In this document: positions 111-37,472 of the stretch, in pieces
Position numbering within the stretch: the first letter of the stretch is position 1
Layout: each line of letters starts with the position of its first letter
Source of the DNA: Moniliella sp. 'wahieum'
Taxonomy: Eukaryota
Direction of reading: 5' to 3'
Length of the DNA stretch: 64,000 nucleotides
Assembly: GCA_003971905.1 (NCBI GenBank)
Contig: RSEE01000145.1
Coordinates: forward strand, 62,001 to 126,000
Position numbers and translations under genes: made by a program
The notes under the pieces: generated by a model
Told to the model about the DNA's origin: nothing
Database searches by the model: none
What the model saw: the letters and a program-made list of their open reading frames with translations, nothing else

Positions 111-2965
<2,855 letters not shown>

Positions 2966-5259
2966 CAAGCTACGGAGCTACGAGCTACGAGTTAGGAGCT
3001 ACGAGCTGCCCACTGCCACCTGCGAGTTGCCCACGGTAGAACATCCGGCCCCTGTTGTGGATACCAGTCTGCCCGCACCATCGACCATCGACCATCGACC
3101 ATCTCTTTCCCCCTGGGCCGACCTATTGCATGCGCTGTGTGGATGGAGGAATGGAGCATACATACATCAGTGAGCGCGGCAAGGGACTAGCGACTAGGGA
3201 CTAGAGACTCGTGGATGGTGAGCGCTGAGCGATGAGCGTTGAGCGTTGAACGTTAAGCGTTGAGCTAGCACAGAGCTTCTCGCCCTCGTCCTCGCCCGCG
3301 CCCCTGAAGTCAGGCCAGACGTCTGACGCCTGATGTCTGACGCCCACGTACGTGCCAGAACAGAAATAGGGGGGTGGGCAGCGGCTTGGACAGGTCGGCT
3401 TGGGTGGGGCAAAGCCAGCTAACTGCCAGGGATCGTCACCACCTCAATCCGACAGTACCTTGAACCAGTCAGTGCCTTGAGTCTCTCAGGGCCAAGCTGT
3501 AAGCTTCAAGCTTCCAAGCTTCGAGATTCAAGTGTTGCTTGCATTCGGCGCCTGTCGCTCCACGGGGCTACGTGGCACGTCACGTGTGCCACGTGACGTG
3601 GGACATGGGACCTGGGACATGGGACGTGGCGCGTGGGACGTGGGACGGTCGTGCGTCAGTAATACTCAGTGAAGCCTGTCGGAGGACAGCGGTAGATTAG
3701 TAGGCGCCTACACCTGCCCCCCCGCCGCCGGCGCATCGATCCGCGGGGGCAGAGAACAGTCGAGAGAACATCGCGGGTTTTAGGAGCACAAGTACACCTT
3801 TGTGTCCGCACTGTCAGCGCTTCGGTCGCATAGTGTATCAGTACTCAATAGTCCCCCGACATGGCGAAACAAAACAAAAAAAGTATATCCGTTCCTCTCA
3901 TCGAATCGATCTCTCATTTTCAGGTAAGAGGACCGGGAACCTGCCGCCCTCGAGGTAACTCTCTTTCAGGTGATATATGATACCGGTGATGCAATGGAAG
4001 GTGCATGGTGCATGGTGCAGAGGCTCGGTTCCGAAAGGGCGCGAAACCTGGCTTGGCCTTAGGTAGTACCAACCCGAGATGGCGATAGGGATGAACGATG
4101 ATCGATGATCGATGAGGTCGGAGAGAAAAGCAGTGGCCTGCGAAGGCTGTTGGACGTTGGGCAACGGTCAGCCGGTCAGAGGGTCAGCCGGTCAGAGGGT
4201 CAGCCGGTCAGAGTGTCAGAGGGTCAGAGTCAGAGGGTCAGTAACATGTAACCTGCACAAGTAGCCCGTACCACCGTGCCAGGATGCCCTTCCTCTGTGA
4301 TCACACATATGTGACTGCTCCAAGAGCCTCGCTGGGGAACGAAGAGAGGAACGTGGATCCTTCAGATCATGCATCATCCAGCTTTCCGTCCTTCCAACCT
4401 TTCTACCCTCTCGACCCCGTTCCCCGCATGTGCCCACAGTAACTATAGTGACTAGTAACTTTCGGGCATGGAATAGAGGTATCCGGTGTCCGTCAGGTAC
4501 CCCTCCCCCCCACAACGAGTGCGAGCTGGGGTGGTATGCAAGCTCGCGTGATGATTATCTCCGGTGTCTACAAGCGGGAGTACTACGAACATCACGTGGC
4601 GAGGGATGATGGATGAAAGGACGTTATGCACGTTATGCACGTTATGAGCGTTGAAGCTGTTGAAGGTTGAAGACGTTGAAGGTTGAACGGTATGAGACCC
4701 AAGGGCGCGCACGCTCGCTAACACGGAGACGAAACAGTTCTCAACTTTAGAAGTCCGGTACAGGAGAGGGAAAAAAACGTCGAGGAAAATGTAATGTTCA
4801 TGAGCGCGGGGGGTAGGGGGCGAGGGGGGGACGATACGGAGGGTAAAACGATACTCGTTAAACCGTAACCGCGTAACCCCAGAAGAGGGGCAGGTAAAGG
4901 GGACAAGGAAGGAAGCAGTCCACGATCATCGATCATTCACCATCACGCTCTCCAGAAAATAGGCAGGTTACTACAAGGAGTTGGGAGGGAAGGAGCCACG
5001 AACATGTTCATGTCCATGTCCGCAACTGAGTACTGAGTACTGAGTACTGACATGCGACATGTGACAGGAGGATGGTACGTGGTACTCCCACTCCCATGTC
5101 AAACAAGACTAAGACCAAGCTCAAGCTTGAATGACTAGTGACGAGAAGAATACGATGCCGTCACACACACGTAGGTTGGGAACAGAACAGCCGAGCATAC
5201 CGCACGACGGGTACCCGGTACGGGTAGAGGGGTACCGGGTACCGGTTACCGGTTAGAGC

Positions 5260-6132
5260 TTAGAGCAGAAGCCCCGCAGCGGCCACTGCAGCGACAGCCA
5301 TGGCAGTCCCGACCGAAGCTACCCGTTGGGCAACCCCGCTGGTGGAGCTGGATGAAGGCTTAGCCGCGCCCGAGGCCGAGGAGGCAGATGCGTCCAGCTG
5401 CGACGCCTGCGATGCAAAGCTGTTGGCCAACGACGACAGGGATGGGTTGGCAGATGCCTTGGCTGCGGAATAAGTGACGAAGCAAAGCCTTGTCTTGCGA
5501 CGCTTTGGACTCCAACGTCGACCACGCACCCACAGCATCCGACGTGACCGTGCTAAATGCGCCCGCAGTCGGACGTGATGGTCGTCAACGCACCCCCAGC
5601 ACCCGACGTGACAATCGTAAACACGCTCTCGGCACCGGACTTGGCTGTGCTATACGCCCCCGCGGCATCGGACGTGATGGTCGTCAAGGCACCACCTGCA
5701 CCCGACGTGACAATCGTAAATACACTTTCGGCACCAGACTTGGCGGTGCTAAATGCGCCGGCGGCATCGGACGTGAGCGTGGTCAACGCCCCGCCAGCTC
5801 CCGACGTCACAATGGTAAACACACTTTCGGCACCGGAAACGATACCACCACCAGCGGAGGTAACGTCGCTCCCAATGGAACCAATGACCGAGAGGGGATT
5901 GTCTGGTACATGGCACAGCAGGCGCATGGGTATGGGTCAGCGTTTCCCACCTCTCAGACGCATTCGGACGTGGAGCCGCGGGGCCGGGGCGAAGCGGCAA
6001 GGGGGAGAGTAACTAGGAACGCAACGTACCGCGCTTGACCAACCGAGGGGCCGCTGTGACCTGGGGCAGAACGGCAGCGTTGGCGAAGCCAGCGAGGGCG
6101 GCGAGGGAGACGAGGGTAGCAGTGGTGCGCAT
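5260..6132 (-). CDS. Secreted, probably GPI-anchored Ser/Thr/Ala/Gly-rich cell-wall protein with 33-aa repeats
   Basis: Signal peptide MRTTATLVSLAALAGFANA, then ..LVKR (Kex2-like site), intron 6029-5903, about 3 copies of AESVFTIVTSGAGGALTT(I/L)TSDAAGA(F/Y)STAKSG, and a hydrophobic C-terminus ..AMAVAAVAAAGLLL*. Two apparent frameshifts. Confidence 0.8.
5557..5850. repeat. 99-bp coding tandem repeat (about 3 copies)
   Basis: Repeated CCGACGTGACAATCGTAAACAC..TCGGCACC..ACTTGGC.GTGCTA unit. Confidence 0.9.
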
Positions 6133-7939
6133 TGCGAGTGGCGAAGTGAGGTGGTGGGGGAGAAAGATGGCGGAGAGGGGCTGAGGCGCTGAGGCTGGGG
6201 GGGGATGGTGGATGTTGAGCCAGTCTAATAAAGAGGGTAAAGTGAAGGGTGAAGCTGAAGGGGGGCTGTGGCTGTGCTGGTGCTTGAGCGGCTGAGGCGC
6301 CAAGGCGCGAAGGCGTGACGCGACGCATGGCATGTGGCATGCCTAAGTCACTAGTCACTGGGACGTGGGAGGCGGCCATGCGAATGCGGCGGCAGGGGGC
6401 AAGTGTGGGGGCGCCGGCTACGCTGCGCAGGATGCAGGACGCGCGGCGGGCGGCCGTGGCGGCGGCGCTTGCTCGTGCTCGTACGGCGCCGTGTGGCTGA
6501 TGGCGTCAGGGGGCTGGTGCCGGTTGGACGTTGGGTACGTTGGACGTTGGCGGGACACTGGGCCGGCGCGGCTGGGATCCCCAAACGCCCAAATTCGGGC
6601 CAGCGCCCAACAGAGCTGTGGAGAGGCGGTGGCGCAGCCACGGATCGACTGGACAGCTGGCCCCACGCCTCACGCCTCACGCCCCGCGCTGCCCCAGCGA
6701 TGGTCGATGACTCTGACTCTGACTCTGAGATCTGACTATATGACTAGTAACTCGCTGATCAATGACCAATGCACGGTTACTGTGCCATGTGGCATGTGGC
6801 ATGTGGCATGTGACGAGGATGCATGCTCGGCGTCGCAGCGGTGTTCGGCCGCTTGGCGTGCGGCTGCGAGAAGCTGCGAGAAGCTGCGAGAAGCTGCGAA
6901 AGGGACGCTGCGGATGCGCGCCTCGCCCGCTTCTGTCGGTCTGCCCAGGATGCGCAGACACTAGGGTTGGACAGTGGGCATACAATGAATATGAAATTGA
7001 ACATTGAACGTTCAAGTGGATCGTTGTGGACCCGGAACCCGCCGCGTCCCTCACCCGTTCGCACCGCCCTAGGCCAGGCGGCATGCATCACAACGAGGGT
7101 TATCGAGGATCGATGACGCAATGCCCGTGTCCCGCATTGCCACTTGGATGCGGCTTGAAATTGGAATCTGAAGGCTTGACTTGTCAGAAGGCCGAGAGCG
7201 GTACACGCGAGAATACACGCCAGCGCGCACACGATGGCCATCCAAATCCAACATCGGCCATCCTTGGTCAGTGTGATCCAGCTGCGACGTGTCTAGCACA
7301 CCAGACTGCGGCCGCATCCCCTTGTCGCGCCCCCCCGCCCGCGCCAACCCCAAGACCAACCAACCAGATATCCCGCACAAGCACACCCACTACCGCATGT
7401 TGTATGCCAGGCAGACGCAGACGAGACGGACGCACCACTTCTCAATCCGCCACGCCATCCCCCCATGGCCCAATGCTATGGCTATTCGCCGGTACAGCAC
7501 ACTAAGGTAGTCATCATCGCTCCTTCATCAACACAAACACAACACACACATTCAACGACCAAGTTCATCCGAGAGAAAAATGTATGCAAGGAAAGTGTAC
7601 ACAGATAGGATGCGAGAAACGCAGACGAGGGTATTCCAGCTTGGCGCGCCAAGCAAAGCAGACACGGACGCACAGCACGTGAACAAGCACCTTTGCGCCA
7701 ATGGACATGCAAATGCGTCGAGGAAGAAATGAGAGGGGGGCGGAAACAAGTCGTCGTCATCCTGCCAAGGGCAACGCGAAGTAGGTAGGCAAGTTCGCTC
7801 CCTGAAGTGTGGGGCGCCAACAAAGTCTCCAGCGCGGGTATGGGCCACAAGTGCAACCGCAACCGCAACCGCAATCACAAGAGCAAGGGTAATAGGTCAT
7901 TCAAAGCAAACGAAGGAAAAGAAGTGGCAGTGGCCGACG

Positions 7940-10004
7940 CTAAGCCGACCCCACCTGGTCCGTTGACTCGTCCAAAGAGTGGGAGGGGGAACTGATCCTT
8001 ACCTGCGGTCGGTGGTGGAACAGTTCCTGAGCCGCAGCACGCGTCGTAGCGCGATCCAAGTCTTCCGCAATAGGTTCCGGAGTATCTTCCTCTGGTGTCA
8101 AGTCACCAGCCAGCCGCTTGGCACGCATCTGGTGCACGTGCGCGACCACTTCCCGTCCGAGCGTAGCCACCTCAGCCTCGTGCCGCCGCATAATCTCCGC
8201 GTGCAGCGGTGGCTCCGAACTAAGTCGCTGTTTGGCCAGGAGCGCGTACCCCCACGCTCCACTGACAGGAACAGAGTCTGCCTCTGGATCGGTCACCCTC
8301 CGAGCGGGAATCCGCGTGCCATCAAGTAATGTCACCATCCCTGTCCCGCCAGGTCGAGCGGCAAGAACTAAGTCCCGTCGGCGCTGACGCTCAACCGGGT
8401 CGAGCTCCCGACGCCGCGGCGTATCGCTCAGACTTCGTCGTGAGCCCAGAGGCGCAGGTCGCTTAGGCGCCGACTGACGCACCGTCTCCACTGCCCCCAT
8501 CGTCTCCGTTCGTCGTAGTCCAAGTCGCGTAGGGGGGAGCATAGAGGTGTCAGAGTGGTACCGCCGTAACTTGATCGCGTGTTTGATGCGCCTGCAAACC
8601 AATGTGGTAAACAATGTGGCAGTGGTAGTGGTAGTGGTAGTGTTAGTATCCCAGTAAGGAATATGGAGAAAAAGTATACGTACCAAGCCGACCCTCGGGA
8701 CCGGTGCGCCGGGTTGCCTGGCTCATGCACCGACTGGGAATCAGTCTTATCGAAGGCAGGGGTATCGTCCTGCGTGTCCAAGGACGGTTGGGACGCAGAA
8801 GAGGGAAGCGCATCCGCGCCATCTTCCCGGTCAAATTAACGTCCAGAAGACCGAGCTAAAGTAGCCCCGTTCCTCTTCCACCCACGGCACCGGAAGGGGC
8901 GCAAAGTGAATTTTACCGTGCGAGCCATCGGGGCCTGAAGCAGCCGAGACAGCCTGGGTAGAACGCGCACGACAAGGTACAACAAGTCCATCGGACAAAG
9001 CTTGGGCCGCAGTCATCGAACGTCGGGTATTGATAATGGCATTGATTGCCGCCAGCTCCTCAGCATTGAGCCAGCCATCGTTATCCTCTGGCTCTTCCTC
9101 CGACTCGTCGTCAACGGGCGCGGGAGCGGACCTGCGGCGAAACAGCCTGTGTCGTCCAGAGGGCGAAGTGGAGGGTGTACGTGCACGGTCGAGAATCATC
9201 TGCCTACGCTCGGCTAGCGCAGTTTTCCGCACTTGTCTCTCGGCCTCACGTTTCTTCTCCAACGATGGAATGTACGTCGTAGATCCACTGCCTGTACTCC
9301 ACCCGCCCAGAATGGCCATCTGCGCATTAAAGTTGATATCGGCCATACCGAGTAACATGGCAACCTTTCCCATACCCAGAGCCTTTGCGCTTCCTTCTCC
9401 CGTAACCGAGCCTCGGCCTTTTGGCGCGCACGCGCTCGGTCCCGCTCACGCTGCTGCGCTTGTTCTTTCCGTAACGCCGTCTCGGGATCCGGCTCGGACG
9501 TCACGGCCCGGATCCGCGTACGCACACGCCCGTTCTCATCCACGTTCGAAAATGATACGGGAACGTACGGCTCACGTGGAGAGGGTTGCGCAGGATCCCG
9601 CTCGAGGGCGGGGGGGAGAGCGAGTGGGAGCGCGACTGGGAGCGCGACTGGGAGCGCGACTGGGAACGGGAACGGGAAGGGGAGGGGGAACGAGAGTGGG
9701 AACGGACAAAAGTAGAAGGCGAGGGACGGGAAGAAGAAGTGGAACCGGTGGGAGTGGGAGTGGGACCATGCTCAGTGGGGGGGGCGGTAAGAAAAGGTGT
9801 ATGGTCAGGACTGGAACAACGTGGCAGTGGCAATGGTAGCGCAAGCTCCTCGTCGCTGGATGTGAGATCGAGAGTGGAGGGGCGAGGGAGGCGAGGGAGG
9901 AAGAGCGGGACAGGGTGGGAAGAGCGAGCGCGTCGAGCAACGGTTTAGGCTCGTCGAGGGAGCGTGGGCTGGGCGGCAGGCGGAGGCGGTGGAACGGCGG
10001 CCAT
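7940..10004 (-). CDS. Hypothetical protein (Ser/Arg-rich N-terminus, charged helix, possible hydrophobic segment), multiply frameshifted
   Basis: Consecutive coding-like minus-strand ORF pieces 9501-9833, 9214-9543, 8831-9373 (..GKIHFAPLP..), 8428-8781 and 7940-8686; candidate ATG at 10004. Confidence 0.55.
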
Positions 10005-13000
10005 GGAATGGCAGAAGTTGGCAAGTGAGGAAAATGAGGAAAATGAGGAAAATGAGGAAAAGGAGGAAAGTAGCGGTGAGGGTGGTGGAGGGAAGACGAA
10101 AGGGGGGCAAGCGGGCAACGGCACCAGGGCGGTCGCTTTTCGTTTTTGGCAAAGGGGGCCGATGGGCGGTAGGCGGTAGGCGTTGGGCGTTGGGGGGGGG
10201 GTTGGGCAACAAATCTGGAACGGCAAATGGACGCGGACGTTGCCCAAGACCTAAGGCCTGGCCGTTCTTTGGCCAGCGACCAGCGACGATGAATCATGCA
10301 TCATGCATGCATCAGCCAAAGCACGTGGGCACCTGCTACTTTGGGGGGCAGATCCATTGAGCGCCTGGCGCGTTCTACGTCTGCGGTCTGCGCTCCTGGC
10401 CTGGTACAATGTTGCATGGCCGGCACTTGGCTGGCGCGTCATCGAGTCATCGATCTAGTCATCGACCATCTGTCCGGACTCACCCGTCGTCACGCGTCAC
10501 GCATCACGTGCCTCCCCACCCCTGGACGGCCCACAGCTACTGTGCGGCGCACGACGCGGGCCAAATGCGCCGACCTGTTCGGCCTCGTGGACTGAAACAC
10601 GTGGCATGTGACCGCAATGTCACGTGTCACACTCACACTCACATGTCACATGTCACAGTCCCTAGTCCCTAGTCACTGCACTTGTTCTCTCGCTCCCGCT
10701 CTGGCTCGCGGCACTCGCGCACCACAGCTGCCTCAGATCTTGGGATCTTGGAATAGAAGCCGAGCCAGGTTCCGAGAATGCGAGGCGCAAGGTCCATGCG
10801 GGGTATGGTGTAGCAGGTTATATACCCCAGTGGCCAGTGGTACGCGCCCAAGGCCTTACGCCTTACGCCTTACGCGTCAAGCTGCTTAAAGCTTAAAGGA
10901 CCAGAGCACTGTCCCAACTGTCACACTCAGACTCAGCAGCAGGCAACCAGTATGCAGCCCCCCCCCCCCCCAAAGCGTCTTTTTTTACACGGGCCCCATG
11001 CCTGCCATCTTTCGCCATTTTTCCCAAGGGCTTAAAGTCTACTTTTTATTAAGGAGCCTCCGGCTCAAGCTTCAGCTGAAGTGCTTTCAGCCATTCACAT
11101 TCAGCGTAGCGCCTCAGCTTCCCCGGATTCCCCGCTTCCCCAGTTCCCCTTTTCCCCAGTTCCCCTTTTCCCCAGTTCCCCTTTTCCCCAGTTCCCCTTT
11201 TCCACTACCGGGTACTGGAACCTCCGGATTGGTTGGTCTACGTAGAGCCGGATGCCTTTATGGCGCCCCTTTAACGTTTAACGTTACGCGTTACCCCTTC
11301 CCCCCTCGGTGTAACATGCAACCGGTAACTTCCGAAGCCCCTGTGCCTGTGCATAATCGATTCGATGAACCCCTTTTTCTCCTGCCCAACTGTGGTCCAA
11401 GTGCCTCGACGTACGTTCAACGTTGAAGTTCAACGTTCAATGTACACGTTCATCATTCAACCACCCATTTTCGTCACTACATTGCCTGCTACTCTACTCC
11501 GCCAGAGGCTCCCAACCCAATGCTTGAATCCTTAGTCCTCCCTCTTGAACCTTTTCGACCGTTTTAGTGCCAACTACCAAGGCCTAAGGCAAAAGCACAG
11601 AGAGTCCACCACTGTAGATTCTTCTTTTAATCAGCAAACGTCCCACCACACCATCTCTCTTCAAGCTTCACTACGAATACTAGTTGACGGTCCATTGCTC
11701 TGTGCAGGAAGCATAAAAGTAGAAGTTTGGCGATGGAAGGCACCACAGGGGAACGATCTCGGGCTCGGTCATAGGAGTGGATTAAGAGCGAGTGTGGAGG
11801 AAGGGGAGGATCATGCATTACGCAGGGGTTGAAGTAATCCACGGTATATAGAGAAGAAGTCGATGCTGCTGGTGGAGCCGCTAATGGGCCCACATATGCT
11901 ATGGAGGCTAGAATAGTATGGGGGAAGCAGGTGGCCAAAGTGGGAAGAGGGAGGGGAAGCAAAGTGGTAACCCGGTGTGGAGGACAGCGTATCAAAAGAG
12001 AAAAGTGAGAGCAAACGCGGTGGCGGTAACATACAAGGTTTGTACCTCCGGTGTAACTCAGGTGTGATGTAGTGGCCGTTTGGGGAGAGAGGGATGAAGG
12101 AAGGAGAGAAGGGGACATCGATGGCTGTACCACCACATCCAGGGGCAGGGGGGTTCATTGGTGGAATAGACGCCCACCGGCGCACTGGTAGCGACCAATC
12201 ATGTCAGACCTTTGGACGCGAGATGGAGAAGCACGCGATGGTGGAGACTGAGTATGCGGGACAGTCAAGGTGAGGTGCTTAGTTACGGTCTACCAGCCAC
12301 CAGTCGGAGGATAAACTTGAGGAGCTCACTGCCCTCGGTGCCCATCCCTGCTACCGGGGTCGCTGGTCGCTATGACGGTCACGATCTTGGCTGCTACAGT
12401 ATCATTCTCACAGGCTACTGTTACTGTGTTTTCTAACTCGCACGGGACTTCCAAGTGGGTCCCATCCATCCCCGGGCATGGCTCCCCACCAAACGACGAA
12501 ACGCACGCGCTCGGAATCGACCTTTACCGGTTACCACTGGCACATGATGCATGATGCATGGCCAAGTTTGGGAACCTTGCCCTACGTCTACCCATCCCTG
12601 TCCATGCATCCACGCACCTTTTCCCAACCCGAGTAGTCTAGCGCAACATCCATCCAGCAAGCTTCAAGGCAGCCTGCGAAGCCGCAGCTCTTCAACGCGG
12701 ACATGTACATCTGTACATCTGTACATCTGTACATCATCTCAACGTTCAACCCCTCCGCACCTCATCCCAGGACCAGCGCCTCACCTTCCCCGGCGGCATC
12801 TCTGTCATGCACATCTGGTCCTGGTGCGGGCGTAAGGGCAGGCAGGGTCAGTGCATCGGCCGGTGCCTCGCCCTGCACTGCGCTCACCGCCCCAGGAAGC
12901 AGGTACGAGATGGCCCCACCATCGATCGGGGGGGGTGGACTGGTACCCCAGCGTCAACTTGCAGCGGACACATTGCACGCGGTACTGTCGCTCCAACTTT

Positions 13001-13867
13001 TCAGCCCTGCAATCGTTACTCACCAAAGGGGGAGGGGGGAGGCGTGTGTCAGACGTCAGATGTCAGTACTCAGTGGTTTTCTCTTCTCTGCCCGTAGCGT
13101 GGCAAGCTCAAGGAGGGTAAGTACTAAGTACTCTAAGTACGCACCGTCGTACATATACCGCCGGTCCGGGCTCAGCATTCCACTGAAACGTCCTTCCCTT
13201 TGCGCGCGACAAGACGTACGCCCCGTCGGCTGGACGGCGCGGACACTGTTCCACCGACCCGTTCATCACCAGCGCAAATTCGCCACATAAGCAGTAATAC
13301 ACACGTGCGTCCTGTGCTCAGCCGATGTCAGTCCCTCACTTCTCACTCCTCACTTCCCCCGCCATGTAAAGGGTCACGCACAGTTGCCGGCATTGTGAAC
13401 ACGGGAAGGGGGGAGACACAAAGCCTCACAGCCTCACAAGGTCTTCGGATGGTCGAGGTGGGAACGGCCCCGATGGTGACGATGAGCGAGCGGACGCGTT
13501 CACGAGCCGGGATGATCGATGATCGATGATCACGCGTCAGGGTCAAAAGGAAGAAGAAAGATTGAAACCAAGTTATTTACCCCACCATAGCCCAATCCCA
13601 GTCGTCTGATGCGCTGCTCACAATTTACCAGAGATGGCCCCCAGTCCAACAATCCTGATACACTACGGATGCTTCCTCGGTCGTTCTAACCTACTGGTAC
13701 TTACCCCAACGTTCAACTCCAGGACATCCATTGGACCGCACAGCCATATGCCCACATTGGTAGTGATCAGATGGGGGGGGACAGAAGGATCATCGATCAG
13801 ACAGGACAAAAAAACCAGGGGGGGGAGAGAAAGGCCCCACCCCACAGTAGAAAAGAAAAAGAAAAAC

Positions 13868-14281
13868 TTAATTAAGCCCGTAATGGTTGAAGGCCTCGTC
13901 CTCCGCATGCTTCTTGGCCCGCTCACGGTCGACGAAGTCCAGTCCCTTCGTCTCCACTAGACGGTCAAGACCAGCACCCACAAAGCCGGCAAGAACCTCC
14001 TTGGCCTTGGCGTGGTCGTCAGGCTCGCCGTTCTTGGCCTTGTGCTCCTCGTACGCTGTACATACACCCTTTGTTAGTCATATAGATCATCAACAAATAG
14101 CGCTAGTAGGATGTATATGGTGATTGGCTGGAAGAGAATTAGACGAAAATCTGAACGCACACTTAGCTGCTTCGTAGGCAATCCCGCCACCAATCAGCTC
14201 GTGGGAGAGCTTGGCCTTGTGCTCCTCCGAACCGTCATACGCATTGACCTGGTTGTAGCTGTCCTCGCTGAAGAACCCCAT
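13868..14281 (-). CDS. CipC-like (DUF3759) small protein
   Basis: MGFFSEDSYNQVNAYDGSEEHKAKLSHELIGGGIAYEAAK, intron 14160-14056, then SYEEHKAKNGEPDDHAKAKEVLAGFVGAGLDRLVETKGLDFVDRERAKKHAEDEAFNHYGLN*. SHELIGG and ETKGLD are typical CipC motifs. Confidence 0.92.
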
Positions 14282-15515
14282 GTTGGATAAGTAGACTTTT
14301 GTGACAGGTGCGGTGAGAGGCGAGGGTGTGGTAAAAAAGGACGAGGGACGAGGGATGGTGGGTATGGCGGTGTTCAGCCCCAGGACAGAGGCTCTTTTAT
14401 ATTTTTGTTTGGTATCCGGTGGGGAGAGAAAAAGTGTAGTGCGAGTGCGCACAGACGCATTGCATTGTTACATGTTACATCTTTGGATGGTACACACCAC
14501 CGGAAACTCCTTATGCCTTTGCATCCATCCTTTTGTGGGGCCAGTTGGCATCTACATATAGCCCCTTCCCCCAAACTGGCAGCGAGTGCCTAGTTACTAT
14601 AGTTACTAGTTATCGATTATCGAAGGGCATTTTATGCATAACTGATGGATAGCCCCTGGCCTTCATAGGGTCTATTCTATCCGCTCCGATGGCTTGCTCC
14701 ACACAACCATGATCGAGCAGCGACCATGTACCCACAGAGCATATACGTCCCGAGCGTATATACATACGTTACCTCTATACTCCGTACTGCAACCGTAACA
14801 TGCATAACATTCAATATTCACAGTAGAGCGTAAGGCTGGGACACAGAAACGCTACGCCTAAACAGACCCGTTCATCCGGCGTGGGTTGCATGTTACCGTC
14901 AACCCCGTTTAAGGAACCAGGGGAATCATTAATCGCAGGAGATCAGGGTCCTCTGCTGCCCGCCATCTGCATCCGTTCCCATACCGAGGAAGCGCGTGTG
15001 GATACGGATCGATGAACATTCAGTTGAACGTTGAAGGTTGAACGTGTACGCTAGTATATTTCTTGAGCGTCTCACTCAGTGATGGTACGCACCGTCCTCG
15101 CTTGATCACAACAATGAACTTGAGAGGGGAGTCATTGGTCGCTGTCGATCCATGAGATGGATTCATCAGCATCCCCGACATTGGCCACACTCCCTGTCGC
15201 AAGAGAGGACGGGGGTAGATTGAGAGAGATTTCGGATCCCGGGTTTTCCACTCTGAGGACTTCAACTTTCGGGTACAGCTTGTGCTGTGATCAAATCAAC
15301 ACGCTCATGCACAGAAGCGCAACCGCAGACCCAGCCGCCTCTCTCCCCATTGCACATTACATTGGACGATGGGGTAGACATCGATGTCGATGTTTATATC
15401 AAGAGTACGTGTCTGTGGGCTTGGCTCAAGGGCGTCGGTTTGGCCCCCTGGGAATCTATTCTATGCCACAATAGGATAAATGAAGGAGTGTCATGACTAT
15501 TAGTAGTTTGACTCC

Positions 15516-24185: not shown

Positions 24186-24321
24186 AGAAAGTGTGGCCTC
24201 GCATCTCACCTCCCCTTCCTTCACCGGCTCCGTCCTCATCGGTACACGGAATGGAGAGATTGAGGATACTGCGGTCACCCTTACTCAAACAAGTGAGATG
24301 GATTTTCTCGACCGTGTCACT
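24186..24321 (+). pseudogene. Degenerate ~135-bp copy of an internal VPS18 segment
   Basis: AGAAAGTGTGGCCT..TCCTCATCGGTACACGGAATGGAGAGATT..CACCCT..GAGATGGA.TTTCTCGACCGT.TCACT aligns by eye to 27716-27850. Confidence 0.85.
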
Positions 24322-25422: not shown

Positions 25423-27213
25423 GTCAATTCATCATGATGAAGAAAAGACGCACAGGGGGGTATCTACCAGCTTTTGGGCTGTATCCTGTGAGCGGAAAAT
25501 GGCTTCAGGTAGTCGTTTAGATCAAAATGGTGCGAACATGTGGGCAGGAGCTATATAATAGCTTCGACCTTCACAGCAAACTTGCACACCCTGTTGATGC
25601 ATGTTAGTCCCAATGTGATCAAAACTCTGATAGCACCCTTGAAGCTTCATGAGGCTTTGCTCATTCATAAAGAAGATGGACGCCCCATGAATCATGATCG
25701 TGGGCTCCCCAGCAAGCCTTTAAATCTAAACTTGGTTTGGAGCTTCTGGGGTTTATCCTATGCTTTGCAGGCGCATAGTGGGCAAATGCGATTCCATATA
25801 TACACGGCGAGGAGAGGACCGCACTTCAGCGTTTAAAAAGAGGGGAGATATGCCAGATGGTCGGATCTATTTCAACGGAAGATTCAGGCGATGACAGAGT
25901 CGAAGCACAACAGCGATGCGTCGGCCCCATGCACACTGACATTCATGTAGCATGTGACACACTATCCTTGGCCTTGACAGTCTCATCACCCCCCAGATAT
26001 TGGTTGCAGTTCGGAGAATCGGAGGTGGTTACTTTTGGTCAGGCCAACTCGGGTTTGTAGTCAAACTGCTGGAGTCGAAGCTAAGGGGCTGCTCTTTGTC
26101 TCGAATGTCATTGGCGTTAACATCTTTGTCCATGGCTTGCACAAAGGGAAGGGAAGCAGATATATATGTGCTCATCGCTTCCGCTTATCCGTATCGACTT
26201 GAGTTCTACAGCATCTGTTTTGGCTCGGCGCACGGGCCCTGCAATATGAATACTGCCATTTGGTCAGCGACGAGCGGAAGGGACACGAAATTCCGCCCTC
26301 CACAGTTGTTGCATTTTAATCCTCGGCCTGTCGTCGCGCGTCTTGCTTCTTTTCTTCGAACAAAATATCCAAAGGAGGTGTGTAGCATACTATGCCTATC
26401 CTCACCTCTATTTTTGCGTTACTGACATGAGGTTTAACAACAGACTTAAAAGTTCGGTGCTGGTCATTTCCTCCGTCCCAGTATCGCGTTCCCGTCTCCA
26501 AGAGTAATGGTGCCAGCTTGGGCCAGGCCTCCTGCCGCTTCGTCTGTGAGCTTGAGCCTCGCGCTCCTAGGGGGTTAGTCTGCCCCTCTCTGAGGTGCGG
26601 CGGGCCATGATCCTCCTGGTCCAGGCGAGCCGTGGGAGGCCCACATGTGTATCCGCGACTATTTATGGGTTTTGCTGGCTATCTCTACTAGATGATGACT
26701 AGAGTAACCGCCGCCGAGGCATGTCTACGGTAAAGGGTAGCACGATGAGCACTAAAGTCCTCTTTTCATTAGTCAGAAACAGATGTGCATGTGGCTGGCG
26801 CTCTGCCCTGCCTTGTGGATTCTTAGTGCCCTTCTCGAATCGATCTTCAAGCTTCAAGCTTCAGGCCGCATCATGAATGTGTACGATCTTTTCGGGAAGG
26901 GGGGTGTGGAGGGCCGTCGCGGATCAGGGTCACATCAGTGGATAGAGGGTGTGGTTCAATCGTACACTCAATCGCCGTGGAGGGGAGGGTTCCTTCGTGG
27001 TCCCAATCCCTCCTCGAATCGGATCGCTACAGAGAGTGCCAACGATGGGATTGATGTGAGGCAAGTGGCAGTGTGGACCACCCGGCGGGCCGGGCGGAAT
27101 GGACGGATGAAAGTTTCATGGATGCTGCCCAGCGCATGGGCGTCGTGTTCCCAGCCGCGCCGACAAGCCCCTCGGAGCAGCTTGAAGCTTGAAGCCTGAT
27201 ACCCCAACCACCA

Positions 27214-30200
27214 ATGGAGCTGGATCAGCCCCACGGAGCCCCCACCCGCTTCGCCCCGCCCGGCAACGAGCGCCTGCTCACCGATGCCGTCCTTGCCGTC
27301 GAAGCCGGCGTGTACGGGTTCGGGCTCGGTGAGCTGCCCGACGGGTCGGGCCAGGGGCAGGAAGCCGTCGCCGATGCACCCGACCCTCAGACCAACAGCG
27401 ATGCGCTCTTCACGCTCGGGCGCGTGCAGTACGCCTTTCCGGCGCCCCTCCAGTCCCTACAGGTCGCCAACAACGTGATGGTCATGTGTCTTCTATCGTC
27501 CAAGGGCGCACGCCTGAACCGCATTGATCTCGACAATCCCGGCACAGTGGAGGAGGTCCCCCTGCCCCCCATCCGGGAGGCTACCGACTGTTTCTTGACC
27601 ACACCGGCACCCACGCCCTACTTTCCCATCCTTCCTCTGCGCAGATGTACTGGTGGAAGAGTGGATGGAAGCGAGCGCGCGCGCTTCCCCGTGCCCACGC
27701 TCTTGGCCTACAGGTAGAAAGTGTGGCCTGGCTTCGCCCCTCCCTTCCTCCACCGGCCCCATCCTCATCGGTACACGGAATGGAGAGATTTGGGAGACTG
27801 CGCTCACCCTCACCCAACGAGGAGAGATGGACTTTCTCGACCGTCTCACTGGCCGCACTCCAACGGCAGATGAAGTGGAAGCTCATTGGACACGGATGTT
27901 CTACCTGCCTCTACCGGAGCGTGTCCGGGGGTTGCACACTGCACTGATCAAGGGCGACAAGGCATACGTTATTGCAACCACAGCAAGTCGTATATACGAG
28001 TTTGAGGGTCCCATCGGACCCCGGAGGAAAGGGGTTGGCTTTGATCCTCATTCGTTAACCGCGCAGGTGACTGATGGTGGGCTTCCCCCCCCCAGGAGAC
28101 GGGTGAATTTGAACGCCTTTTCGCTCTGTACCGCGATCGTTCCGGTGAATGGGACTCGACCAAGTGTCTTCGTTCTGAGGTTCCTCCATTGGCCAAGCCC
28201 GACTCTTCCGTATTAAGAGTATGGACACCTCATTCTCTTCCGAAGACAGAACCACGTCGGCTGTCGCTTCAGCTCGTTCCCGATCCGCAACCGGCACCGG
28301 CAGTCGGGACCAGCACTCAGATCGCGTGGTTGGTGGCACCAGGGGTGTATCATGCTTCTCTCGGCGACAAGGTGTTGGAGGAAGCGTCACTCCTCCCGTT
28401 CCCGTCTCAGGAGGAACCATTAAGCATGGCCCTCACTCGCTTCCATACTGTCTTGCTCTACGCCTCCCCCGCACGAGTGGAGTGTATTAGGAACGTGGAT
28501 GATGCCCATGTGTTCAGTGCATCTCTAACGTCCTTGTTGATGGAGGGAGAGGAGGTGCGCGGCGTCTCCTCCGACCCGCTGAAGCACACTGTATGGATTT
28601 ATACCTCTGCCAGCATCTTTGAGCTGGTCATCCAAAGGGAAGAACGGCACATATGGAAAGCCTTGTTGCGGCGGAACCGGTTCGCTCAAGCTCTTGAACT
28701 CGCCCCTTCTCCTGCAGCGAGGGAAGCGGTAGTCGCCTCCCAGGGCGACCGGCTCATTCTCCATGCTCTGGGCTTATCGAGGGAGCGTGCGCGGAACAAC
28801 TTGAGCGTGGACGAGAAGCGTCAATTGGTTTCAGGCTGCCGGGCTGTATGCACAAACAACCATCCGACCATTTGAGAAGATGGTTTTGGCCCTGTCGGAG
28901 GCGGATGCGACGCTCGGCGAGCCCGATGGCGGCGGGGGCTTGCGCACTTACCTAGCCACCAAACTGCAGCGCACCCCAAAGAAGAACAAGCTGGCGCGGA
29001 TGATGATGGGAACGTGGCTGCTGGAAGCTCTGTTGGCGCGGTGGGACGAGTTGGAGGATACGGGTGCGGCACAAGGAGCTGGTGAGGAAGTGGAATGGTT
29101 TACCCGGCGCGCAAAAGAGGTGCAGGATGAGGTCCAGACGCTTCTGGACGTGCAGAAAGATGTGCTGCCCCCTTCAAGCGTGTACCGTCTAGCCCGTCTG
29201 CATGCACGTGAACAAGTTCTTCTTCATTTCGCCACCGTCACGAGAGATCACAAGACCAGGCTGCAATGGTACCTTGACCACGGAGATTATTCTCAAGCCC
29301 TGCGCACACTCGCTCAGCAGGACGATATGGAGTTATACTATTCCACGGCTACCCTTCTCCTTCGGCACGAGGGCAAAGAGACAGTCGACGCTTGGATCAA
29401 GGAGCCGCGGTTGGAGGTACGTCGGCTACTACCATCGCTCCTCCTGTACCCAAAGGAGGCGGTGCGATTCTTGCTTCATCTCGTCGAGGGTGGCGCAACG
29501 GACGTGGCGATTCATAATACTCTGGTTGCACTCCTGGCCAAGGATGGGGAGTTGCTCCCTTTTATCGACAATCATGAGGCGCACTACGATCTGGCCTATG
29601 CTCTGCGGGTGAGTCTCGCACATGGCCAGAGGGCAGCGGCAGTGCGTGTCTACACTCTTATGGGTCGTGCAGGCGACGCGGTCGATCTAGCTTTGGAGGG
29701 TAAAGACGTCGAATCGGCTTGCCGGGCAGCACGGGGCGGCGAAAAGGCGCTTTGGCTCAAGATTGCACGGTATGTGGTGGAGGAGCAGGACGTGGGACGA
29801 GCAATGGAGCTGGTGCAACAAAGTGGGGTGTGTCCATCGAGGATGTGCTGCCCTATTTCCCAGACTTTGTGGTGATGGATGCGTTCAAGGCCCAGGTAAC
29901 CAGTGCACTGGAGAGTTACGCATCTCAAATCACGCATTTAAGTCATGCACTGGACGAAGCCGCGTCGAGCGCCCAGAGGGCCCAGGGTCAAACGCTTGCG
30001 CTCCAATCCACCCGTTTCGTCACACTCCACCCCGAACAAGTCTGCATCGGATGCGCGCTTCCCCTGTTGCCCCCTTCCACTCCGTTTTACACGTTTATCT
30101 GTGGCCATGCGTTCCACCTCGCCTGTCTTGTGGAGGCAGTTGCGACGCGGGCGCCCCGCCGCACCCTCCGTGCCTGGGTTGCGTCACACAATCGTCTCGC

Positions 30201-30464: not shown

Positions 30465-30773
30465 CATGGAAGGAGGTGGGCAATGGAGATTGCAGACCAT
30501 CCATCGGACGCAGGTTTAACGTTTACCCCGCGTAGTTTGACAGCAGCAGACACAGGAGGCTGGAAGGCCAGCACGGGGGGCAGCGACTAGGGTTGCGCAA
30601 TTAAATCCGAGAAAACTGCGGAACCCTAATCCAACCCTACTGTACGCCCCCCCTCCACCATTCTCAGCTTCGCCCGTCGGCATCGTCCACGCCCACCGCC
30701 CCAAGCCTAGTAAGTCCTCCTTGCCCCGCTCACTCTCCCGAGGCTGAGTGCTGACTGTGCGCAGTTGCCCGCC

Positions 30774-31368: not shown

Positions 31369-32441
31369 ACGCCCACTGGTCTATTTCTTTTTTGCTCCTC
31401 ATCTCAACGTCTCCGCTTGCAGGCGGGGCCTCGTTTGGCTTGACCAGGAGCGGAACACTATGCCCCTAGGCATTCCCGCAGCGTAGTTTCGCTGTACAAA
31501 ATGGCACGGTCTTGATGCTAACCCAAGACGGGCTGCCTATATGATGTTCCATGGGACCGAATTGGGAAAGAGGAGAGACAAGAGTGGCCGTCTCAATGTT
31601 GCAGTCATAGCATGTGCAAATCTTATTAGACAGGGACAAGGAAACGCTGCGTTTACACTAGGCTGGCTCATTAATCATTTGGCGTGCGCTGCTCCCCATC
31701 CGCAGGAAATGAAGACAGCGACTGGCTGGAGGAGCGTTTCGGAGCGATCCGAGTCGCTGGGTGGTAACCGGTAAATCACTTATGCCTATGTAAGGCAACG
31801 CTGGCGGGGGGGGGCATTGCGAGTGTCTGATGCTTGATGGATCATCGAACGTCCAGGCGTTTCGAACATATTGGCGCTCAGCGCCCCAGCGCCCATCATC
31901 AAAGCAACTCGCCTTCCTCCCACTGCCCACCCACTCATCACTGCTACTCGTCTCCACTAACCTTGCCTTTTGTCTGCATTCAGCCCCTGACTATGCTGGG
32001 CACCTCTGACAGCGAGTCTAATGGTTGCGCACGTTTCGATGAGAGGACTACATACTAGTATGGGACTCTGTGTATGTATCTTTAGCTACGCGTTTACCGT
32101 TTACCACGTTTCCAGGCCGGTTACCGTGATCCCCTCCGTCTTTCAATATGGTAACAAGAAATCCGTTGTGACGATAACATGGTGGAACAAAAACATGGTG
32201 GGACAAAAACACGACAGGGAGAAAGAAGCTATTCTTGTATCCAGGCTTGCGAATAAGGAGTTGCATCAAGGCATCTCATACAAAAGCAATGCACAGTGTA
32301 AGCTCAGAAATTGCGAAGAGAGCTGCAGGAAAACGTGGCCACGGCGTTAAAACGTAATAATCGCAACACGACAGAGAACATGTCAACAAAACAGTAAGTT
32401 CCCAGGTCGCATTTGCGATGCGGTCCTTGGAGAAATCAAGA

Positions 32442-33548: not shown

Positions 33549-34779
33549 TGGGGAGGCGGGGATGGGGATGAGGATGGTGGTGGGGAAAGTGGCAGCGAGG
33601 GGCGTCGAGCAGCTGCGGAAGGACGGTGCGGTAAAAGGATGGATGGAGCTAGGCAAATATAACACGACTTGTGGCATCATACACATCATGCTTCGATTCC
33701 AGATTAGCACTCCCTGTTGCACGGGTTCAGCACCAGATTGCATCATTCCAGTCTTTGCAGTCGGCTCGGAACCTTGGCCAGCCACCCTACCCAGCCACCC
33801 AGCGCCTCCCGCACCCCGCGTCCAGCGCCCAGCGGGGACCCGTGGGGTCCAGCGTCGAGCGCCAAGTGGGGACCAGGGCCGTGTTCCGGCTGTGGGCGGG
33901 GGTGCCTGGCACCAGGTATGCGAGCGCAGGCAGGAAGAATACGACACTGATACAGGGTGATGGGTTTTGCCGGGCAGGGCAGTTACGCGTTACGAGGCAC
34001 ATGCGGGCACTGATCGAACTGATCCCCGGTCAGCGCGGTCAGCGCTGAGCTGGTCTCAGGCTTCAGAGCTTCAGCTGAGCTTCCTGAGCTTCACGCTTCA
34101 GAACGTTGAACCGTTGAACGTTTCCTAGTTACTAGTTACTAAATCACTCGCCCACTAGCTACTACAGCCTACTAAACCTAGAAGAACTAGAAGAAAGCTT
34201 CACGCTTGACACTTGACTTGAAGAGACTAAGTGATACCTGAGGAGGGTTACGAACGTGACATTATAGTCACTCCATCTCCCATTTCGTCTACAGCACGTC
34301 TCTAAGTTTTCGTGTGCCAAGATCTACCTCTGACGCGCCAAGGCTATAGCTCTATAGCCGCTTGTGCGGATACAACTCCGACAGAATGGCGAAGAGCGGT
34401 GAAGCTGGTGAAGCATGAAGACAGATGGTTGGAGAGAGAAAATGGTGGACCCCGCCGGCCCAAACGAGGGCCTGTGAGGCCTCTGAGGTTAGGCCTGAGG
34501 CATGCAGAAGGGTGGTCATATCAGCCGGACTGAACTGGGTCTATTAACCCAGGTTTCCACCGCACCGAAGGCTTACTATATACTAACGTTGAAGCTTGAA
34601 GCTTGAAGGTTCAAGTACCGGTTGAACCCGGTAGCTCAGGCTGAGCGCTTGATATATGCGATCAGCTAGGAGGCTGTACGATATGTGATCGATCCGTGAT
34701 CCCGGGGGGATCGGGTGCCGTGGCATGATGCGTATGGCGCATGATGCACACGGGGGAAGTCGACCGATGTTTATATCGA

Positions 34780-34870
34780 CTAGAGGACCACCAGGCCTAC
34801 GGCCCCGCTTGCTTGCCACCGTTCCACCCTTCCATCATCGCCACCGTAGCCGCCGTTACCGCGTTACCCT
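34780..34870 (-). mobile_element. Helitron-like 3' terminus remnant (degenerate)
   Basis: A|CTAGAGGACCACCAGGCCTACGGCCC..GCCACCGTTCC..GCCACCGTAGCC, homologous to 47047-47200. Confidence 0.55.
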
Positions 34871-36639
34871 GTTGTTCAACGTTCACCGGCACCACGGTCA
34901 GGATGGTTTAATGTTTATCACCCACGGTTGGATCTGGCTGCGGGTGGCTGTGAGCAGCTTAGCGCTTATGCAGCTTATGTCAGAACTGTAAGGTTACGAT
35001 TTCGACCGGGACGCTTTCTTGTTGACGTCGACATGCATGACATGCGACAAACAACACACGCCCCATGGACGGGTCGGTGTCGGCGCAGCGTTTCTTTGTC
35101 CCATCGTCAATATCAATGAGATGTGACATGGTTACAACATAGGGATGATCGATGCTGTGGCCAAAACTGGGGCGAGTTGTTAAAGTTACTGCAGCCCCAC
35201 AGGTGCGGTGATTCTGGGGGTCGGGTACACTCAGTCTGAGTACGCACCTCGGTGACCGGTGAGATTCTGAGATCTGTAATCGATAATCGATGATCTAAGA
35301 CCCTCGATCCGGGAAGCGATGGTGTCGATGGTGAGATCAGAGATCGATCTCGCTATGTATCAAGAGACAAGAGAGGCCCCGTTCGCCTCGTAGTGACCTA
35401 GTGACCTAGTGGCCCTGGGGCAGTGACTAGTGGTGACTAGGTGACTAGGATGCATGACAGTGTCGCACCCGTGGACAGGGTGATATGCATGTGGCAAAAA
35501 CCGCCGCTCCCATTAATTCAAAGACCACTGCTGCGCCGGCTCTACTAACAAAGCACGATTCAGAGTACGCGCACGGTGAGGGCCTTTTGGGGCTCCAACG
35601 AGGCAACGTCCAACGCCCAACAGGCTCGAACGCCAGCGAGTTTGGGATTTGTGATGGCAGCGGTGGCAGCTGTCAGACTGACATGTCCGGCCTTAGTACG
35701 TTATCGCGTTATAGATCCTAGATCCCAGAAGTGGGGGGATCCGAGGGCACATTGGCGCGTAAAGCGTAACGTTAGGCGTTATCGTTAACGTTTAACCCTG
35801 TTGACCCAAAGGGTCTGAATCTGGGGGCCATCACCTCCGAGATCATCGATCACTCTGACCTTCTTACATAGGCGAGTACCATGCCAGTATCCCTATCCTC
35901 TGGCCTAGTGCCACTCCAACTTCTTCTTATTTTCCTGTCTTCCCTTGCACTGAGGTTGCCGCTGGGGGACCAGGATCGTTAAACGTTAAACCCTTCCTTT
36001 GCCACAGGCCACGATCATTATCGACATAATCAGGCCTCAGGGCGTGATCGATGATCGATGTCGATTATCGATGAACGCAGATCTCAGACCACAATTTACT
36101 AGTACTCGTTTAAACGTGTCATCGATCGACTGTAATCAATATCCTTGACATCGATCAAACCAAATGGAATGATGCATGGTGTATGATGCAATGATGCTAT
36201 GACCAGCATGAGCGGTCCGAGGGCGTGAGGGCCTGACCTGACCGAGAACACGTGTCATGCATGCCATGCAGCACATGTGACATGCGGCATGTGAGCCTAT
36301 GGCGCCTATGAGCGCTGAGCCTGTGACCGGGTGACCATGTAACCTCTTCCCCCTCCCTCCATCGACCATCGACCATGAAACGATTAACGTTTGACGTTTT
36401 ACACTAACGTGTACCGGTTCCGGATTTTTGAAAACGAATGCCTGTTGAGAGAGACAAGAGAAAGTTACCGAGAAATTCCCAATTGATTAATGAGATCTCT
36501 GAGATTTGAGATATCTCAGAATCGAATCTTCGCTTCTTCATTGACTTCATTACGAAAGCAATCTTGTGTCTCGCCATTGAATATGGACCGAGCATGGCGC
36601 CCATCTGTTAGACTGTGATCCTGCAGCTGCTCTCATCCC

Positions 36640-36711
36640 GGCTCGATAGCGTAGTGGTAACGCATCCCTGGCCAATAGGCGATGACATGGGTTCGAATCC
36701 CATTCGAGTCT
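36640..36711 (+). tRNA. tRNA-like Pol III gene with aberrant anticodon arm (nominal anticodon CCA; possibly pseudo-tRNA)
   Basis: Acceptor GGCTCGA/TCGAGTC, D arm GCGT-AGTGGTA-ACGC, T arm ATGGG-TTCGAAT-CCCAT, 72 nt, TTTT shortly downstream. The anticodon arm TCCCT-GGCCAAT-AGGCG lacks U33 and has a C-C mismatch. Confidence 0.8.
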
Positions 36712-37472
36712 CTTCTTTTCCTCACTATTTCCCCCGGGCTGTGCACTCTCACACCATCGGTTCATGAACAGGTCTGAGCATACGCAGTACTCGGTACTCA
36801 TCGGCTCATCGCTCATCGCTACAGCTCAGCGAACGCACAGCCTGAGTAGGCCTGATGCACAGGTCGAGCTGAGCGCCTGAGCTCGTTAAGCTATAGTTGA
36901 TGCTGACCCTCTCAGGCTGAGAGTTGATGATGCACTACTATGGCTGGTGTCGATGGTGGGCTCGTCTGATGCAGCTACGAAGCTGAAGAGCGAGTACGGT
37001 TGACGCGTTGACTCGTGACGTCATATAGGGTACTGTATATCATGTAACATTCTGCTGCTATCCCCGCACTGCCTATATAGAGATCTACCTTGTGCCAAGG
37101 GTACAGTTGTGCCCTGCCCCGTTCGCTTATAGCCCGCATCGTGTTTTACACAACGCACAGTGTGGGCCAATTAGTAAAAGTTGAACGTTAAAGCCGGTCT
37201 TCCAGCAAATAAGGCTCAAAACCCCTCCCCGATGTCTGCAACCTTCCTACGCCTGTTTCTTCCTCCCCGCCTCGACTGAGTACTAACTGAGTACTGATGC
37301 CATCGTATGCATCATGCATCATGCATCACGCAGGCGCCATTCGAGGGCCAAGACAAGGGTATGACCTGATGGAGATGGATCAGGCCCTCAGGTCGATCAA
37401 ATGAGCCTGTCAATTCTACATTCTCAACGGTCAACGATTATCGACTACTAACGACTACTGCTAATCCCTGAT

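Follow-up and report, generated by a model that had tools for sequence, protein, structure and literature searches.

Heptameric repeats are known to be over-represented in the intergenic DNA of many bacteria; the record goes back to a survey of 2007 that is cited in the relevant passage of Rehm et al. (2015; PMC4692102), and the examples named there comprise GGGAATC of Xanthomonas, GGGGAYT of Nostoc and the heptanucleotide repeats of Calothrix; TAACTGA repeats of the Beggiatoaceae are described in a passage of PMC4679880. As far as the cited passage of PMC4692102 portrays it, the preference for seven bases has remained without an explanation in bacterial genomes ever since. Here we describe short head-to-tail heptanucleotide arrays in the intergenic DNA of a stretch of 64,000 nucleotides from Moniliella sp. 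'wahieum' (assembly GCA_003971905.1, contig RSEE01000145.1, positions 62,001 to 126,000 of the forward strand), hereafter the window, which is eukaryotic and fungal as judged by its gene content; all statistics refer to this single 64-kb window. The arrays resemble the bacterial heptamer repeats, in so far as the two cited passages characterize these, in their sharp excess of period 7, in being intergenic and short, and in having no explained function. The bacterial systems are, according to the same passages, prokaryotic and built from one or a few dominant units, many of which are rich in G and prone to form quadruplexes or occur as inverted pairs, whereas the eukaryotic window holds at least 30 units that follow a grammar of TGA plus a palindrome, each array being a near-palindrome of itself. 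A heptamer excess is already known from bacteria; here heptamer microsatellites are in excess in a eukaryote, with dozens of units under a common structural grammar. Our full-text literature searches found neither fungal heptamer arrays nor the TGA-plus-palindrome grammar, and a literature search for the intergenic heptamers of Ustilago, which had been mentioned in an earlier reading of this DNA from its letters alone (the sequence-only reading), showed no relevant paper, by title or abstract, among those listed.

The arrays also share much with the slippage microsatellites of eukaryotes, namely short units placed head to tail, a noncoding position, even decay and independent origins; unlike in ordinary microsatellites, the abundance of periods is non-monotonic, with 7 exceeding both 6 and 8, and the units are compositionally constrained. 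Standard microsatellite surveys usually end at hexamers and would therefore miss heptamer arrays. Hairpin-prone expansion is known from triplet-repeat and flap-hairpin models and from the in vitro elongation of palindromic repeats by polymerases. Our arrays are similar to these systems in that the units are self-complementary and seven nucleotides form the smallest stem plus triloop, and differ from them in that palindromic arrays are not longer and the predicted hairpins are weak. Transposon excision footprints and V(D)J coding joints combine a target-site duplication with P nucleotides, and excision footprints are single events, not arrays.

When arrays were collected with Tandem Repeats Finder (TRF; score 30 or more, overlapping rows removed), the window yielded 51 non-redundant arrays of period 7, as opposed to 21, 16 and 19 of periods 6, 8 and 9, respectively. 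Within 1-37.9 kb, 46 arrays of period 7 compare with 12-14 for the neighbouring periods, and perfect self-match runs of at least eight bases in this region number 40 at lag 7 versus 11 at lag 6, 12 at lag 8 and 16 at lag 9, where dinucleotide shuffles yield about 0.4. The 51 head-to-tail arrays (Table 1) have 2.1-7.6 copies, with a median of 3.0. Arrays occupy 996 of 16,360 bases of intergenic DNA (about 6%), a considerable part of it, and as markers they would be highly polymorphic. The sequence-only reading had reported arrays in which a TRR triplet recurs every seven bases, and every array that it quoted is present at its coordinates (3219-3267, 3188-3208, 3599-3647, 4092-4119, 5027-5047, 6790-6813, 34590-34613 and 37308-37328); the further sites that it listed by approximate position are all present as well, save that the one at 14590 has period 9 and not 7. 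Its expectation for the triplets themselves was also borne out. With recurrences of TRR and YYA counted at lags 3-14 for each zone, lag 7 reached 244 against 97 expected in the zones 2950-15400 and 33990-37900 (z = 16.9), while lags 6 and 8 gave 129 each and an echo appeared at lag 14; after masking of the TRF arrays, lag 7 remained on top in the gene-poor zones (127). The preference for period 7 is genuine and departs strongly from randomness.

The arrays are restricted to one compartment. Their density is 2.44 per kb in the gene-poor zones versus 0.22 in the genic zone, 0.20 in the zone of presumed transposable-element (TE) debris at 37.9-52.6 kb, which is repeat-rich and lower in GC, and 0.18 at 52.6-64 kb; the lag-7 excess of TRR/YYA is absent from these three zones (z = 1.0, -0.3 and -1.7, respectively). 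The four arrays of the genic zone all lie between open reading frames (ORFs) with Pfam matches. Similarity between the flanks of different array loci was not found, and the loci therefore have separate origins; on the same ground, we rejected the idea that the arrays were carried by a dispersed element.

A common grammar underlies the units. Thirty-five of the 51 consist of a triplet plus a 4-bp palindrome (TGA in 17, TAA in 7, TGG in 5 and other triplets in 6), and 26 contain a 6-bp palindrome, compared with 10-13% of the background heptamers (P = 2e-13), 24 of these 26 having the form A....T. The palindromic unit amounts to a 7-bp odd palindrome, xyTNAy'x', repeated in tandem, and such an array is therefore nearly identical to its own reverse complement. 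In a scan of all trinucleotides in the units, TGA/TCA alone was enriched (25 of 51 versus 11.8 expected, P = 5e-5); TAA/TTA (9 versus 5.6 expected) was not individually significant, and TGG/CCA stood outside the ten most enriched trinucleotides. The fixed TRR register advanced in the sequence-only reading was only partly right, the real signal being TGA/TCA plus a palindrome; TRR as such is a weak criterion: in any rotation or strand it is found in 46 of the 51 units (P = 1e-6), and in 59% of random heptamers from the same DNA. The units comprise at least 30 different sequences and are found on both strands; the commonest core, ATCGAT, is present in five of the 51 arrays, and TGA is oriented along the plus strand in 10 arrays and along the minus strand in 7. 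The excess of 4-bp palindromes extends to the units of period 8 and period 9 (z = 2.9 each) and not to those of period 6.

As a control we used the period-7 arrays of 120 unrelated metagenome loci, excluding arrays of the type by which the loci had been selected; a 6-bp palindrome was present in 9 of these 97 arrays and TGA/TCA in 18 of 97. Measured against this control, the TGA-plus-palindrome grammar is specific to this DNA. A metagenome scan for (AAGCTTS)x3 returned at least 121 loci of heterogeneous GC content, none of those returned being as array-dense as the window; they served solely as control DNA. The apparent excess of 4-bp palindromes among metagenome period-7 arrays (z 4.2-4.8) is confounded by the AGCT-type selection seed and permits no general conclusion, AGCT being present in 19 of the 62 arrays that lie more than 300 bp from that seed.

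The seeds from which the arrays presumably grew show where the bias acts. Since palindromic and other units reach the same copy number (means of 3.2 and 3.3, P = 0.77) and their folds are weak, palindromy is not what drives expansion, and the bias already exists at the outset. For these two reasons we rejected hairpin-assisted expansion as the only cause. Outside the arrays, TNA-centred 7-mer palindromes number 78 versus 42 +/- 7 in shuffles and A....T hexamer palindromes 87 versus 40 +/- 5.5, with the other three centre or outer-pair classes at expectation, and among separate loci ATCGAT is found 21 times and AACGTT 14 times (3.6 expected for either). The isolated A....T hexamers carry an identical base on both flanks in 47 of 84 cases (P = 6e-9) and are therefore sub-threshold heptamer repeats; neither other palindrome classes nor other zones show such flanking.

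Seed lengths peak at 12 nucleotides (18 regions), and 15 of these 18 seeds have the structure TNAxy-y'x'-TNAxy or its mirror image, where a random offset would give 2 of 5. For a test devised after the data had been seen, all maximal direct repeats of less than two copies were written as D-S-D, with S as the spacer between the two copies of D. At lag 7, 22 of 52 spacers of 2 nt (6.5 expected, P = 8e-8) and 10 of 61 spacers of 3 nt (1.9 expected) are reverse-complementary to the end of D that they adjoin. Lags 8 and 9 show this junction as well, in 7 of 22 and 6 of 11 cases, respectively. When mirror, complement and same-sequence relations were counted as controls, each gave 2-5 cases versus 3.2 by chance, and the enrichment is absent from the genic, TE-like and right-hand zones. 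At lag 7, D measures 5 with the 2-nt and 4 with the 3-nt spacer; D = 5 is commonest, and the junction also occurs with D = 4, 6 and 7. Within TNAxy the palindrome forms about 15 times at the xy end and 1-2 times at the TN end. Eight of the 27 perfect regions start in the odd-palindrome frame (P = 0.03), and six of the 11 two-copy regions are duplications of this frame, give or take one base (2.4 expected, P = 0.017); the match of start phase and palindrome frame is suggestive, not strong. A strict model of 7-bp target duplication was rejected in view of the low proportion of regions that start in the frame and the lack of matching elements in the window.

On the larger set of arrays, the idea of a conserved triplet beside a changing spacer did not hold. 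In a permissive set of 27 imperfect arrays with 65 mismatches, 27 fall on the triplet and 38 on the spacer, against expectations of 27.9 and 37.1 (P = 0.47); a strict set, confined to the triplet-plus-palindrome register and free of indels, leans the other way with 3 versus 13 (P = 0.04). Variants break the palindromes, and no compensating changes were seen. We conclude that the arrays decay evenly over their columns, which, by the criterion set in the sequence-only reading, counts against a maintained binding register; it also counts against hairpin selection. We also considered a single hypervariable column, as suggested by the arrays at 3219, 3188, 3599 and 4092; these had been picked by eye, and a rough estimate suggested that they are not improbable enough to carry weight.

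The explanation that we tentatively favour, and to which we give a good though not a predominant chance, is that the arrays are neutral heptanucleotide microsatellites that arose independently from a lineage-specific mutational bias in non-TE intergenic DNA. Insertions of 7 bp would be seeded preferentially at tiny self-complementary sites with 2-3-bp arms around T-N-A (xyTNAy'x'), no smaller unit being able to form a stem with a triloop; seeds of 1.7-2 copies would arise in this way and then lengthen and shorten by replication slippage, and the arrays would be lost by point mutation, evenly across the seven columns. The TRR triplets, mostly TGA/TCA, would reflect a sequence preference of the seed rather than a maintained protein-binding register. 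What we infer from these data is that the seeds grow by slippage, that self-pairing has a part in seeding and that the arrays are neutral. Because seven bases are the smallest combination of a 2-3-bp stem and a 3-base loop, such seeding would explain why 7 exceeds 8 and 9, why 6 is uninvolved, and why palindromes are found only at periods 7-9. Two causes had been put forward in the sequence-only reading: polymerised binding sites, which gained no positive support, and a hairpin or template-switch mutational process, which fits better and for which the TNA-centred odd palindromes in half of the units, the bias at the seed stage and the 22 of 52 junctions argue. With moderate confidence we favour a structural or mutational origin. 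As the structure of the seeds can be read directly from the sequence, the question why the period is 7 becomes testable; the pattern suggests one of two things, the smallest self-pairing unit or the product of a staggered break and hairpin repair.

Several observations weigh against seeding at self-complementary sites followed by neutral slippage. Stem strength does not account for the near-constant T-N-A centre as opposed to C-N-G or G-N-C, and we know of no mechanism for a sharp preference of 7 over 6 and 8. Palindromic units do not attain higher copy numbers, weak folding is predicted for the DNA hairpins (-1 to -7 kcal/mol, mean z about -2.8), and 16 of the 51 period-7 units contain no 4-bp palindrome. 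The TE-like zone, noncoding though it is, carries 12 times fewer arrays, a deficit for which a purely replication-based bias must invoke age or chromatin state. Finally, everything rests on one 64-kb window.

The main alternative, possible but unlikely, is that the arrays are footprints of break repair. A nuclease, or a hairpin-forming DDE transposase with hAT- or Transib-like chemistry, would cut open intergenic DNA at sites containing TNA with a short stagger; fill-in would duplicate 4-7 bp (mostly 5), hairpin opening would add 2-3 P nucleotides, and the net gain of about 7 bp in the form D-P-D would be extended by slippage. The structure of the seeds speaks for this alternative at several points, namely the excess of reverse-complementary D-S-D junctions with 2-nt and 3-nt spacers and at lags 8 and 9, the junction controls at chance and the other zones free of enrichment, the single structure of most 12-nt seeds, and the two-copy regions that duplicate the odd-palindrome frame. 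Like excision footprints and V(D)J joints, the seeds consist of D, a 2-3-nt reverse complement of the end of D, and D again. Break repair would also explain the fixed increment and the confinement to presumably open chromatin; DNA transposons prefer open chromatin, which the confinement of the arrays to non-TE intergenic DNA resembles. Unlike in excision footprints, however, the length of D is variable, the palindrome is almost always found on one side of TNAxy, and arrays of 3-7 copies are formed. A D of 4 to 7 is unlike a single transposon family, and a two-fold symmetric enzyme would not produce the asymmetry between the xy and the TN end. The start phase fits the palindrome frame in only 8 of 27 regions, 2.4 arrays per kb would require very many events, and the D-S-D analysis was devised post hoc. 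Within the window we found no transposon or transposase that matches the footprints, no inverted-repeat elements with flanking direct repeats of 7-10 bp, and no transposase domain among the 81 ORFs scanned.

In a specific version of this alternative, which we consider doubtful, a previously undescribed, sequence-directed break-and-repair activity would operate at T-N-A in open intergenic chromatin. Its product, a 5-bp duplication plus 2 hairpin-derived palindromic nucleotides, would add 7 bp; it would have left the 12-nt seeds as immediate footprints, and slippage would have amplified these into the arrays. Were this the case, the process would have written about 6% of the intergenic DNA.

It is rather improbable that the arrays are polymerised binding sites for an abundant DNA-binding or nucleosome-excluding factor that reads TGA/TRR every 7 bp and for whose sake selection keeps arrays in promoters and spacers. 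Such a factor would be consistent with TGA/TCA as the single enriched trinucleotide, with the absence of arrays from TE-like noncoding DNA, with the mismatches of the strict set, and with the 21 separate loci of ATCGAT. The larger set, however, diverges equally in triplet and spacer, TGA occurs on either strand, the units are very diverse and the arrays short, and binding in a head-to-tail manner predicts neither a palindromic spacer nor the D-S-D structure of the seeds. A positional rule relative to genes was not seen among the few genes of the window.

Selection at the level of transcripts, by which the arrays would act in untranslated or intergenic transcripts, either as three-frame stop barriers or as self-complementary RNA (UGA plus palindrome), is very improbable. 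A stop triplet is present on one strand in 36 of the 51 units versus 34% of the background (P = 1.5e-7), and the remark in the sequence-only reading that period 7 places a stop in all three frames is arithmetically true, although nothing shows selection for it; the enrichment is a consequence of the TGA/TAA grammar and favours neither strand, the five TGG units and the palindromic spacers are left unexplained, and the arrays decay evenly. Least probable is an artefact of assembly or base-calling, for which we found no evidence, given at least 30 different and often imperfect units, their occurrence in one class of DNA while long ordinary microsatellites were assembled elsewhere in the window, and the same grammar in single-copy motifs.

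Table 1. Heptamer arrays, zones and genes of the window (positions in nucleotides unless given in kb; x, number of copies).
Position	Strand	Feature	Remarks
2950-15400		Array-rich gene-poor zone	33 of 51 arrays; clusters at 2.95-5.3, 6.5-6.9, 10.1-11.5 and 12.5-15.1 kb
33990-37900		Second array-rich spacer	10 period-7 arrays around tRNA-Trp gene
1703-1732		(GCATTCA)x4.3	TGA+ATGC
1846-1864		(GATCATC)x2.7	Odd palindrome GAT-C-ATC; holds ATCGAT
2968-3007		(AGCTACG)x5.6	AGCT + 3
3077-3103		(ACCATCG)x3.9	TGG+TCGA on minus strand
3185-3209	+	TAGCGAC TAGGGAC TAGAGAC	Three different bases in one column
3219-3265	+	(TGAGCGT)x6.7	Imperfect
3314-3344		(GYCWGAC)x4.4	Degenerate odd palindrome GTC-W-GAC
3493-3532		(CAAGCTT)x5.6	TGA+AGCT on minus strand
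3595-3647	+	(TGGGACN)x7.6	
4000-4019		(GGTGCAT)x2.9	TGG+TGCA
4090-4115	+	(GATGATC)x3.7	TGA+TCGA
5025-5050	+	(ACTGAGT)x3.7	TGA+GTAC; odd-palindrome frame at start
5208-5252		(CGGGTAC)x6.4	Holds GGTACC
6523-6550		(GTTGGAC)x3.7	TGG+ACGT
6660-6683		(GCCTCAC)x3.4	
6781-6812	+	(TGTGGCA)x4.6	TGG+CATG
10163-10194	+	(TGGGCGG/TAGGCGG)x4.6	
10273-10308		(CCAGCGA)x2.1, then (ATGCATC)x2.9	Second: TGA+TGCA on minus strand
10488-10508		(CGTCACG)x3.0	Holds ACGCGT
10617-10674		(ATGTCAC)x6.1, then (AGTCCCT)x2.6	First with ACATGT
10853-10898		(GCCTTAC)x3.3, then (GCTTAAA)x2.1	Second: TAA+AGCT
11270-11285		(TTTAACG)x2.3	TAA+ACGT
12543-12560	+	(CATGATG)x2.6	TGA+TGCA
13028-13132		(GGGGGAG)x2.1, (GTCAGAC)x2.7, (TAAGTAC)x2.1	Second with GACGTC
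13335-13356		(CTCACTT)x3.1	
13511-13531	+	(GATGATC)x3.0	Exactly three copies in odd-palindrome frame
14339-14355		(GGACGAG)x2.4	
14466-14480		(TGTTACA)x2.1	TAA+CATG
15023-15045	+	(GTTGAAC)x3.3	TGA+ACGT
19634-19654	+	(GAGTACT)x3.0	Spacer between FLILHELTA-domain gene and kinase gene
26845-26863		(CTTCAAG)x2.7	TGA+AGCT on minus strand
27179-27199	+	(AGCTTGA)x3.0	TGA+AGCT
32091-32105		(CGTTTAC)x2.1	
34101-34141		(GAACGTT)x3.0, then (CTAGTTA)x2.4	
34589-34608	+	(TTGAAGC)x2.9	TGA+AGCT
35277-35295	+	(TAATCGA)x2.7	
35977-35991		(CGTTAAA)x2.1	TAA+ACGT
36045-36074	+	(TGATCGA)x4.4	
36359-36376		(CCATCGA)x2.6	TGG+TCGA on minus strand
36797-36820		(CTCATCG)x3.3	
37307-37332		(ATGCATC)x3.7	TGA+TGCA on minus strand
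38202-38216, 47096-47111, 51533-51547, 52924-52946, 59371-59390		Five period-7 arrays	The only ones outside the two array-rich zones and the genic spacers; no 6-bp palindrome
about 2.2-2.9 kb	+	Rab6/Ypt6-type GTPase	
15.5-16.9 kb	-	M16 peptidase (MPP-alpha)	
18.0-18.9 kb	+	FLILHELTA-domain protein	
20-23 kb		Two kinases	
27-31 kb	+	Clathrin/VPS-repeat protein	
36640-36712	+	tRNA-Trp (CCA) gene	Inside second array-rich spacer
60-61 kb	-	Exo84	

The arrays with TGAGCGA/TGAGCGT (3219-3265) and CTCATCG (36797-36820) can be read as tandem GCGATGAG, which may resemble the PAC motif of ribosome-biogenesis promoters in yeast. Among the genes of the window, the MPP-alpha exon has its best named matches in Rhodotorula and Rhodosporidiobolus (42-48% identity) and in a mucoralean fungus (43%), with another protein match at 80% identity over 67% of the query exon, and Exo84 is 34% identical to a microbotryomycete protein, from which we take the fungus to be poorly sampled; a search of metagenome contigs for relatives by means of the MPP-alpha exon gave 553 pattern matches, none of which was confirmed. 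Two adjacent ORFs of 260 and 204 amino acids at 7940-9445 on the minus strand have protein-like, non-repetitive translations without a Pfam match; to judge by the look of these translations, they are probably a lineage-specific gene, which would account for the array-free gap inside the first array-rich zone. Apart from the tRNA-Trp gene, nothing in the window matched Rfam at the gathering score. Upstream of the Ypt6 GTPase domain, a stop-free frame of about 630 codons (304-2200, plus strand) is proline-rich and of low complexity, with (CCCAAT)x12 at 1593-1661. Rather than extending Ypt6 at its N-terminus, this frame probably represents a separate gene or a spurious GC-rich ORF.

Other repeats of the window are of different kinds. 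The pentanucleotide microsatellites (TTTCC)x62 at 53119-53427 and (CCTTT)x71 at 63576-63924, which have a common unit and orientation and are about 91% alike, flank a GC-rich segment of 10 kb with Exo84; neither they nor (GACCAA)x23 at 53551-53687 follow the heptamer grammar. A search of a protein atlas with a 533-amino-acid ORF of the repeat zone gave no meaningful match. Direct repeats at 37473-38156 and 41732-41985, with 82-100% identity over up to about 260 bp, enclose a segment of about 4 kb that contains tandem repeats of 45-114 bp and long ORFs without a Pfam match; the pair may represent long terminal repeat-like ends of a decayed element on the margin of the TE-debris zone. A tandem repeat of 99 bp at 5550-5837 (2.9 copies, 84% matches) has open frames on both strands, and in the genic zone a direct repeat of 139 bp recurs 3.5 kb apart at 24183-24321 and 27713-27850 with 85% identity. 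A perfect 18-bp inverted repeat (CTCGAG plus 12 bases) at 42422-42637 encloses about 180 bp and could be a small foldback element or one resembling a miniature inverted-repeat transposable element.

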